Shown here piece after piece: positions 6,801 through 7,333 of a stretch of DNA of 8,419 nucleotides. The translations under genes were made by a program, and so were the position numbers. Under the pieces are notes generated by a model. The model was not told where the DNA came from, did not search any database, and was given only the letters and a program-made list of their open reading frames with translations. The stretch's first letter is position 1. Each line of letters opens with the position of its first letter. This stretch comes from a virus (Duplodnaviria; Heunggongvirae; Uroviricota; Caudoviricetes): the IMG/VR virus record IMGVR_UViG_2671181188_000016. One strand, given 5' to 3'.

Positions 6801-7074
6801 AAAGTTACACGAAAAGTTACACCCCCTCAAAACGAGGTTTTTGCATGGCATTAACGACCAAAAAAAAGCGGTTTGCTGATGCGTTATCAAGGGGCGCAAA
6901 TCCCACGGAAGCCGCTATACATGCGGGATACAGCGAAAAGACCGCAAGGGTTAAAGGCTGGCAGCTATCCAACGATCCGGAGGTGAAAAAGTATCTTAAG
7001 GCTGTAACTCCTGATGTAACTTTTCAGGTTACAAAACCGAAAAAAGTTACAAAGAAAGTTACCGAAAAAGTTAC
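6801..7074. repeat. AAAGTTAC(AC) repeat array with 12-bp periodicity, spanning the 5' flank and interior of the TerS-like gene; candidate packaging-recognition (pac-like) or regulator-binding sites
   Basis: AAAGTTACAC at 6801-6810 and 6813-6822 upstream of the ATG. Inside the gene: GTAAC at 7004-7008 and 7016-7020, then GTTAC at 7028-7032 (the 7016-7032 pair forming GTAAC-N7-GTTAC), and AAAGTTAC at 7043-7050, 7055-7062 and 7067-7074. Confidence 0.45.
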
Positions 7075-7333
7075 ACCGGAACGGGCATCAATTAACACCA
7101 TTGAGATGATGGATAACGGCCTACCCGACCCCATCAAAGCAATGGGCAGGATACTGATTGACAACATGGACACAGATCCAAAACTGGCTTTAGATGCCGC
7201 GTTTAAGCTGGCCCAGTTCACCCACCGCAAGATCGGCAGCATTGGGAAAAAAGAGGTTAAAAAACTCAATGCCGCTAGTGTCTCCTCAAATCGGTTCCCC
7301 ATCCCTAAGCCACCAACAGGCTTAAGACACTGA
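6845..7333 (+). CDS. Terminase small subunit-like protein (Terminase_2 / SPP1 G1P-type N-terminal HTH), 162 aa; candidate packaging-specificity or packaging-redirection factor
   Basis: N-terminus KKKRFADALSRGANPTEAAIHAGYSEKTARVKGWQLSNDPEVKKYL matches the TerS DNA-binding motif (K.RF...Y...GN.T.AAI.AGYS.K.A...G..L...P.V..Y). Followed by a repetitive KVT linker and a C-terminal domain. ATG 6845 with GAGG about 7 nt upstream is preferred to the track start 6728, which lies in the hairpin region. Confidence 0.7.
   Translation: MALTTKKKRFADALSRGANPTEAAIHAGYSEKTARVKGWQLSNDPEVKKYLKAVTPDVTFQVTKPKKVTKKVTEKVTPERASINTIEMMDNGLPDPIKAMGRILIDNMDTDPKLALDAAFKLAQFTHRKIGSIGKKEVKKLNAASVSSNRFPIPKPPTGLRH

Follow-up and report, generated by a model that had tools for sequence, protein, structure and literature searches.

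The Satellite terS Gene and Its Product

The window analysed here, the 8,419-nt stretch of the IMG/VR virus record IMGVR_UViG_2671181188_000016, contains the genes of a phage satellite. This account concerns one of them, terS, which lies on the plus strand at 6845-7333 and encodes a small terminase subunit (TerS) of 162 aa. Upstream of terS lies a block shared with Shiga toxin (Stx) phages, the inferred core of a cohesive-end (cos) site, followed by short repeats that recur within the gene; downstream lie a 53-aa open reading frame (ORF53) and a gene for a major-capsid homologue, and the satellite has no large terminase (TerL). On sequence grounds, it is probable that the satellite TerS steers the packaging motor of a helper phage onto the island's own cos.

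The terS reading frame is unbroken from ATG 6845 to TGA 7331-7333 (162 codons), and a GAGG ribosome-binding site can be read on the plus strand at 6834-6837, 7 nt 5′ of the ATG. The program-made ORF list places the start at GTG 6728; the ATG is the start in every homologue and in the RefSeq annotation of an E. coli copy with 98.6% identity. A search against small terminase families, which the sequence-only reading of this DNA had proposed, gave matches to two profiles. Pfam PF03592 (Terminase_2) aligns at positions 1-51 of 141 with residues 3-53 (42 bits, E 1.9e-10; gathering cut-off 26.1 bits), a match confined to the N-terminal DNA-binding domain (51 profile positions), and PHROG 641, 'terminase small subunit', aligns at positions 1-155 of 162 with residues 1-158 (E 1e-43). 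In NCBIfam, no TerS model matches the protein. An AlphaFold monomer model, built with 13 homologues as input, has a mean predicted local distance difference test score (pLDDT) of 67.5. The helix-turn-helix (HTH) DNA-binding domain, at about residues 1-54 by Pfam, PHROG and the model, forms four helices (pLDDT 79-87); a linker at 57-84 is predicted to be disordered (pLDDT <50), and a helical hairpin at 96-126 (pLDDT 75-82) precedes a further helix and a basic tail. The best Foldseek matches in the PDB are the DNA-binding domain of SF6 G1P (2cmp, 4zc3; TM 0.82-0.86, root-mean-square deviation 1.8-2.6 Å, 30% identity, probability 1.0), with full-length SPP1-like, NV1 and PaP3 small terminases ranked next. 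The Terminase_2/SPP1-type HTH that the earlier reading had recognised at the N-terminus was thus correctly identified, by the PF03592 and SF6 G1P matches, and by sequence, homologue alignment and predicted fold 6845-7333 encodes a real small-terminase homologue.

That reading had named two alternatives, a TerS or a factor like Rpp, and only the first stands. Rpp, a lambda-Nu1-like winged HTH, pairs with the lambda/80 TerS (PMC6739421). It is the described solution for E. coli phage-inducible chromosomal islands (PICIs) with cos helpers and also mimics the TerS DNA-binding domain, both of which favour a reading of the present protein as an Rpp-type factor that would pair with helper TerS into a hybrid DNA-binding unit. 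However, the Rpp chains 6HLK and 6HN7 were recovered neither by phmmer (E<=1) or profile search (E<=10) nor among 50 of the 52 Foldseek PDB matches at E<=10, and the DNA-binding domain is of the SF6/Terminase_2 and not the Nu1 kind, a different fold family. Moreover, homology to phage TerS is full-length and includes the C-terminal half, and the lambda/80 TerS targeted by Rpp is unrelated to that of the candidate helpers. Whereas Rpp (RppA-C, EcCICFT073-type) is a winged-HTH dimer of 144-153 aa that heterodimerises with the lambda/80 TerS, the present protein is a complete Terminase_2-type TerS. Identity with Rpp was rejected for want of a sequence or fold match, and an Rpp-type role is highly improbable.

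The Island and Its Ends

By gene content and boundaries, the element is a complete PICI-type satellite of Shiga-toxin-producing E. coli (STEC). Within about 10 kb it holds a tyrosine integrase (1-1224), AlpA (2086-2310) and a D5_N/DUF5906 primase-helicase (3930-5684), all on the plus strand and identified by profile matches and RefSeq, together with a capsid-morphogenesis gene and terS, and genes for lysis, tail and TerL are absent. SatelliteFinder models PICIs with five components, int, alpA, primase, capsid and terS, and its authors call terS "responsible for redirecting the packaging" (bioRxiv 2022.09.14.508007); a terS homologue was also reported in some Gram-negative PICIs by Fillol-Salom et al. 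2018 (PMC6092414). A satellite-encoded TerS is an already listed PICI core component, and terS is an unexceptional gene for an element of this known kind.

In complete E. coli genomes the island stops after the capsid gene, with clpS or yejO next. E. coli ERL06-2503 carries the same element between cspD/yljB and clpS, with no annotated gene from the capsid gene to clpS. The island, of about 9.1-9.2 kb, is flanked by a 73-nt imperfect direct repeat with tandem GGTGTAGTTAAT units (L001 11912-11984 and 21040-21112, 9128 bp apart), probably attachment (att) or integrase arm-type sites. The capsid gene is followed by about 620 bp without coding sequence. Neither the complete genomes nor 10 IMG/VR satellites have TerL, portal, protease, connector or HNH genes in the island. 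Because the island ends after the capsid gene in complete genomes, TerL is missing from the entire element and not cut off by the window; the same boundary led to rejection of a capsid-forming PICI (cf-PICI) truncated by the window. The earlier observation that no TerL lies between terS and the capsid-like gene therefore extends to the whole element, and, since the element has no TerL, TerS must work with helper components, as had also been claimed.

Relatives of TerS in Phages and Satellites

Only 13 relatives of TerS were found in a large protein database. Copies from E. coli and Shigella are 90-99% identical, and a 62%-identical E. coli group belongs to HNH-TerS-capsid islands adjoining the type III secretion locus ETT2 (L005-L007). 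The 57%-identical TerS of Hafnia alvei (L008) lies in a true prophage with the order HNH-TerS-TerL-protease/major capsid protein (MCP)-portal. Among phages, the closest TerS (47% identity across residues 3-157) is that of Stx1a-, Stx2a- and Stx2c-converting and related lambdoid phages of enterohaemorrhagic E. coli (among them Stx2a_1447, Sawaravirus; phage 1717; phi330, Pankowvirus). In Stx2a_1447, the order is HNH endonuclease, a 290-nt gap, TerS, TerL, a 645-aa fused protease/major head protein, and portal. The Hafnia and Stx-phage proteins are full-length homologues encoded directly upstream of terL, with the same cos core upstream of terS as in the island; unlike the island gene, phage terS genes have HNH before them and terL after. 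Identity between island and Stx-phage TerS is 30/53 (57%) in the DNA-binding domain, 4/33 (12%) in the linker, 31/44 (70%) in the hairpin and 13/32 in the tail, and AGYSxKTARVKGxQL is invariant in the DNA-binding domains of both TerS clades. A scan of genome contigs with the single protein returned no relatives; an alignment-based scan returned only distant matches (27-67% identity, mostly in the DNA-binding domain) from Firmicutes, Bacteroidota and others, which are unusable for covariation.

A 54%-identical TerS was found on Salmonella enterica contig AAINIL010000071.1 (L010). At 1-6800 of that contig, a run of genes from SSB to TerS, a 51-aa ORF and a capsid homologue adjoins a terL truncated at about residue 88; the truncated gene shares 85% identity with the Stx-phage TerL, and protease/MCP and portal come after it. 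The locus has the look of a helper-embedded PICI with terL as its insertion site, a configuration described in PMC10111431. The satellite family is physically tied to the Stx type of phage because the Salmonella satellite sits in the terL of that phage type.

Among 5426 complete E. coli genomes, the cos-terS-ORF53 segment occurs in 220 (>=95% identity), which among the matches listed are mostly O157:H7, O111 and other STEC, and the phage HNH-cos-TerS-TerL module in 1257. Island and phage module are co-resident in strains UTME-4 and 08_3449, the two genomes checked. The cos-terS-ORF53-capsid module, at 89-100% protein identity and including two small upstream ORFs, is carried on varied backbones: the 10 IMG/VR satellites with the module have at least three integrase types and at least three replication types, and the module is always terminal and never accompanied by TerL. 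The island of O111:H- strain 11128 (L094 1780-10720) occupies a tRNA-Pro/yejM site and encodes a RepA helicase, as against the cspD/clpS site and D5-type primase found elsewhere. The module has been exchanged between satellites with different integrases, sites and replication proteins.

The cos Core

The inferred cosN region is a shared block at 6719-6789, without assigned strand, that consists of a G8 tract, about 30 nt and CTGGACACCGCCCCCCGTCTCATTCGTAGAAAA. In the window, the sequence upstream of terS reads G8-AGTGTTCCGGCCGGAAAGTCGATCACC-CTGGACACCGCCCCCCGTCTCATTCGTAGAAAA (6719-6786), and the HNH-terS gap of the Stx phage reads G7-ATCATCCGGCGAAAAAAACGATCGCTC-CGGACACCGCCCCCCCTCTCACGCAGAGAAAAAA. 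A core of the form CTGGACACCGCCCCCC.TCTCA....AGAAAA is common to the island and to the HNH-terS gap of the Stx phages and the Hafnia prophage. By alignment, every examined relative, whether phage or satellite, keeps the block 5′ of terS, and it also matches between island and prophage within one genome. The poly-G tract at its left edge (6719-6726) varies in length, with G7 in the Stx phage and the O111 island, G8 in the window, G9 in L005 and L010 and G10 in ERL06-2503.

The GenBank record of phage Lys8385Vzw ends with ...GGACACCGCCCCCCCT (shorter form ...CCGCCCCCCCT) and starts with CTCACGCAGAG, a junction inside the cos core. This suggests that the packaged DNA ends lie in the core and, by analogy with Lys8385Vzw, the packaged end of the island would be near 6771/6772. 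Other sources were of no help in placing the cut: the HK97 cos is unrelated in sequence and gave no anchor for the cleavage site, literature searches found no mapped cos ends for the Stx phages concerned, and an annotated note in phage phi330 was uninformative.

The GTTAC Repeat Array

A motif search identified two direct AAAAGTTACAC repeats, 12 bp apart, on the plus strand at 6798-6823 (6800-6810 and 6812-6822), which are proposed from their sequence and position as the proximal candidate sites for TerS binding (cosB-like). Six further GTTAC cores, mostly 12 bp apart, lie within the terS linker at 7004-7077, on the minus strand at 7004 and 7016 and on the plus strand at 7028, 7046, 7058 and 7070. 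In total, 8 of the 18 GTTAC in the window fall inside 271 nt (about 0.4 expected, shuffle mean), and AAAGTTAC occurs six times (0.28 expected). The Stx phage has five GTTAAC within 120 nt after the core and none in terS (about 0.02 expected), and the first two sites, counted from the inferred end, fall at +33/+45 for the island and +34/+42 for the phage. In the E. coli phage clade, unlike the island, the GTTAAC repeats are all upstream of the gene and the TerS linker is longer and unrelated, whereas the Hafnia prophage shares a GTTAC array with copies within the gene. In each of the four VT-type TerS lineages examined (window, L005, L010 and, in the Hafnia prophage, L008), AAAAGTTACAC follows the core, and GTTAC or GTAAC occupies matching linker positions. 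The type of repeat tracks the TerS clade, GTTAC in the island clade and GTTAAC in the Stx phages. An IMG/VR scan for the cos core together with AAAAGTTACAC returned no complete phage; of its matches, 10 were true satellites and 14 were due to chance.

Within the gene, the GTTAC cores encode VT or KKVT repeats with the motif VTPDVTFQVTKPKKVTKKVTEKVT. The linker is the least conserved part of TerS apart from the VT motif. In four homologues, 54-62% identical to the window TerS, the VT codons are GTA-ACT or GTT-AC[A/C] at 17 of 17 positions, with orientation kept; GTA-ACT, which gives AGTTAC on the other strand, encodes the first VT dipeptides and GTT-AC[A/C] the later ones. Natural TerS variants of 154, 158 and 162 aa differ by 4 or 8 residues in the KKVT region (7040-7077), equal to 12 or 24 nt, which indicates that the 12-bp GTTAC unit varies in copy number and that the reading frame is always kept. 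Because the VT codons are fixed in an otherwise poorly conserved, disordered linker, the DNA motif and not the peptide appears to be selected, and the codon pattern points to selection at the DNA level on the linker GTTAC.

A different role for the repeats was also considered, in which the upstream pair would be the operator of a late regulator and the internal copies a KKVT peptide repeat, while TerS would read another site or the helper cos determinants would suffice. The upstream repeats are placed where a terS promoter or operator could be, no sigma-70-like promoter was found there, which leaves room for an activator-dependent one, and the VT columns are conserved in protein alignments. 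On the other hand, codon choice and strand orientation are kept at synonymous sites among homologues only 54-62% identical, the identical 11-mer occurs in non-coding DNA by cos, the phage clade has a different repeat at equal distance from cos, and the linker that would carry the peptide repeat is predicted to be disordered; we regard this reading as unlikely. A function of the array as replication origin was rejected because the likely origin iterons lie elsewhere (5694-5866).

A Proposed Packaging Mechanism

In the mechanism that we favour, in which satellite TerS redirects helper packaging to the island cos, the helper would be an HNH-cos-TerS-TerL lambdoid phage, as many Stx-converting phages are, and its induction would be followed by excision and replication of the island. 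Satellite TerS would then bind the GTTAC array, at the two sites past the cleavage region and at the six in the terS linker, and its conserved C-terminal hairpin and tail would recruit the helper TerL and HNH nuclease. HNH proteins are required for cos cleavage in this phage class, as cited in bioRxiv 2022.09.08.507074. The helper TerL and HNH would cut the helper-like cos core of island concatemers, and island DNA would enter helper-made heads, which the island capsid homologue may modify. Binding of TerS to the repeats, recruitment of TerL and the effect on packaging are what we infer from sequence comparison; the helper-like cos core and the clade-specific array support, and do not prove, the earlier proposal that terS sets packaging specificity.

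Several observations weigh against this mechanism. The position of the cos end rests on one GenBank record, which is flagged circular, and the window core is off consensus at about five positions just past the inferred cut (CTCATTCGTAG versus CTCACGCAGAG). GTTAC and GTTAAC differ by one base and the two clades share 57% identity in the DNA-binding domain; separate specificity is plausible, and the covariation of repeat and TerS involves only two clades. The dN/dS value of 0.35 comes from 11 substitutions. Literature searches found no functional study of a Gram-negative PICI TerS. Finally, the candidate helpers measure 44-62 kb against about 9.2 kb for the island; because the island is so much smaller, one must assume either small heads, in which the capsid homologue may have a role, or multimers.

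The departure of the window cos core from consensus, and the presence of only two or three late-type genes in the element, could also be taken to mean that terS no longer has a function and is decaying, as a leftover from the packaging module of a prophage or cf-PICI. Decay of this kind is very unlikely: TerS, ORF53 and the capsid homologue remain intact in both E. coli and Salmonella, with identities of 54%, 58% and 49% respectively, the module is retained by several backbones unrelated to each other and in 220 complete genomes, the length variants are in frame, and the gene order is unlike that of cf-PICIs.

ORF53 and the Capsid Homologue

ORF53 (7345-7506, plus strand) encodes 53 aa that resemble the C-terminal hairpin of TerS, without a DNA-binding domain. 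It matches PHROG 641 at positions 89-125 (E 8e-7), as do 9 of 9 ORF53 homologues. A comparison with TerS by hhalign was weak (E 0.015) and BLASTP against TerS gave no match, so that the PHROG profile alone supports the relation. ORF53 shares 58% identity with the 51-aa ORF of the Salmonella satellite, but the L005-type HNH-TerS-capsid islands and the Hafnia phage lack it. ORF53 could compete with helper TerS or for TerL.

A protein of this kind raises the possibility that interference comes first, with TerS and/or ORF53 poisoning the helper through mixed TerS rings or competition for TerL, in the manner of Rpp or Ppi and with or without packaging of the island. The hairpin of the island TerS is 70% identical to that of the helper-type TerS, ORF53 is an apparent hairpin lacking the DNA-binding domain that is kept with the module, and known satellites pair redirection with interference (PMC6739421; bioRxiv 2022.09.08.507074). 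Such a primary role is nevertheless doubtful, considering the weak hhalign relation and the absence of ORF53 from the L005-type islands and the Hafnia phage; it is also compatible with redirection of packaging by TerS and does not exclude it.

The last island gene (7487-8419, plus strand) encodes an HK97-fold major-capsid homologue, identified by Pfam Phage_capsid and TIGR01554. Its start is ATG 7487 in the ORF list and the fourth codon, about 7496, in RefSeq (L001). The protein corresponds to residues 291-625, the capsid domain only, of the 645-aa fused protease/head protein of the Stx phage (24% identity, E 1e-20), has no protease or scaffold domain, and is 49% identical to the copy in the Salmonella satellite. 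It recalls both Ccm of SaPIbov5 and the homologues of capsid proteins that most Gram-negative PICIs are reported to carry.

Comparison With Known Satellites

A close parallel is the TerS-S of the Staphylococcus aureus pathogenicity islands (SaPIs) SaPI1 and SaPIbov1 (PMC6092414; bioRxiv 2022.09.08.507074), which is likewise a satellite homologue of the helper TerS, directed to a satellite site and served by helper TerL in a satellite without its own. SaPI TerS acts in headful (pac) packaging and is assisted by Ppi, whereas here the helpers are cos and HNH-dependent, and the core is helper-like with differing repeats. Rpp resembles the present case in belonging to an E. coli PICI with a cos helper and in its outcome, a helper-like cosN with a satellite-specific cosB (PMC6739421). 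By analogy, the proposed mechanism would be the SaPI TerS-S solution moved to a cos/HNH system, and its common cosN and private cosB would parallel Rpp by other means.

In proteobacterial cf-PICIs, the packaging module runs from capsid, protease, portal and connectors to hnh-terS-terL (bioRxiv 2022.09.08.507074). The present island shares with them an association with HNH-dependent cos packaging, its own terS and a capsid-fold gene, but it lacks TerL, portal, protease, connectors and HNH, has terS before the capsid gene, and measures 9 kb versus about 15 kb. The L005 type of island is intermediate between the present PICI and cf-PICIs: at 6206-8281 of an E. coli locus by the ETT2 secretion genes, it combines HNH and the cos core with six upstream GTTAC sites, its 62%-identical TerS and a capsid homologue of 281 aa, and has neither ORF53 nor TerL. 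SaPIbov5 is similar as a satellite of HNH-dependent cos phages with a capsid-protein homologue, Ccm (bioRxiv 2022.09.08.507074; PMC8569155); unlike the present island, it carries the helper's cos and no terS.

Beside use of the helper's cos, Rpp and cf-PICIs, the island may tentatively be seen as a fourth packaging strategy for satellites of cos phages, a possibility in which we place rather limited confidence. It would combine a helper-compatible core, a private cosB array partly in the terS linker, a TerS that borrows helper TerL and HNH, and ORF53 as a mini-TerS competing with helper TerS. A PICI-encoded small terminase is known; what is new here is the explicit cos core, the GTTAC array within terS and the connection with lambdoid HNH-cos helpers of the Stx type. 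If the mechanism is true, it would explain the packaging specificity of this PICI subgroup, and a common STEC island would parasitise phages carrying toxin genes; if the helpers are Stx-converting phages, the island would modulate the production and spread of Shiga-toxin phages. The recognition site of TerS is unusually readable from sequence, and the value of the analysis lies in what the sequence makes testable: a cos core, a repeat array with natural copy-number variants, a candidate helper family and a possible competitor protein.

Other Features of the Island

Between int and alpA, a 257-aa ORF (1221-1994) has no Pfam, NCBIfam or PADLOC match and could be an accessory or defence gene; a PADLOC search with the small ORFs of the island also returned no match. 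Downstream of the primase gene, a motif count found three exact AAAGCCCTCTAC iterons on the plus strand at 5694-5866, 87 and 74 bp apart (0.04 expected), which are likely the replication origin. In every copy of the module, cos is preceded by two small conserved ORFs (6356-6715, plus strand), one of 64 aa and the other a coiled coil of 53 aa, and the coiled-coil ORF is kept upstream of cos in the Salmonella satellite too. An 83-aa ORF at 5974-6225 matches PHROG 1231, a family of unknown function (E 5e-45).

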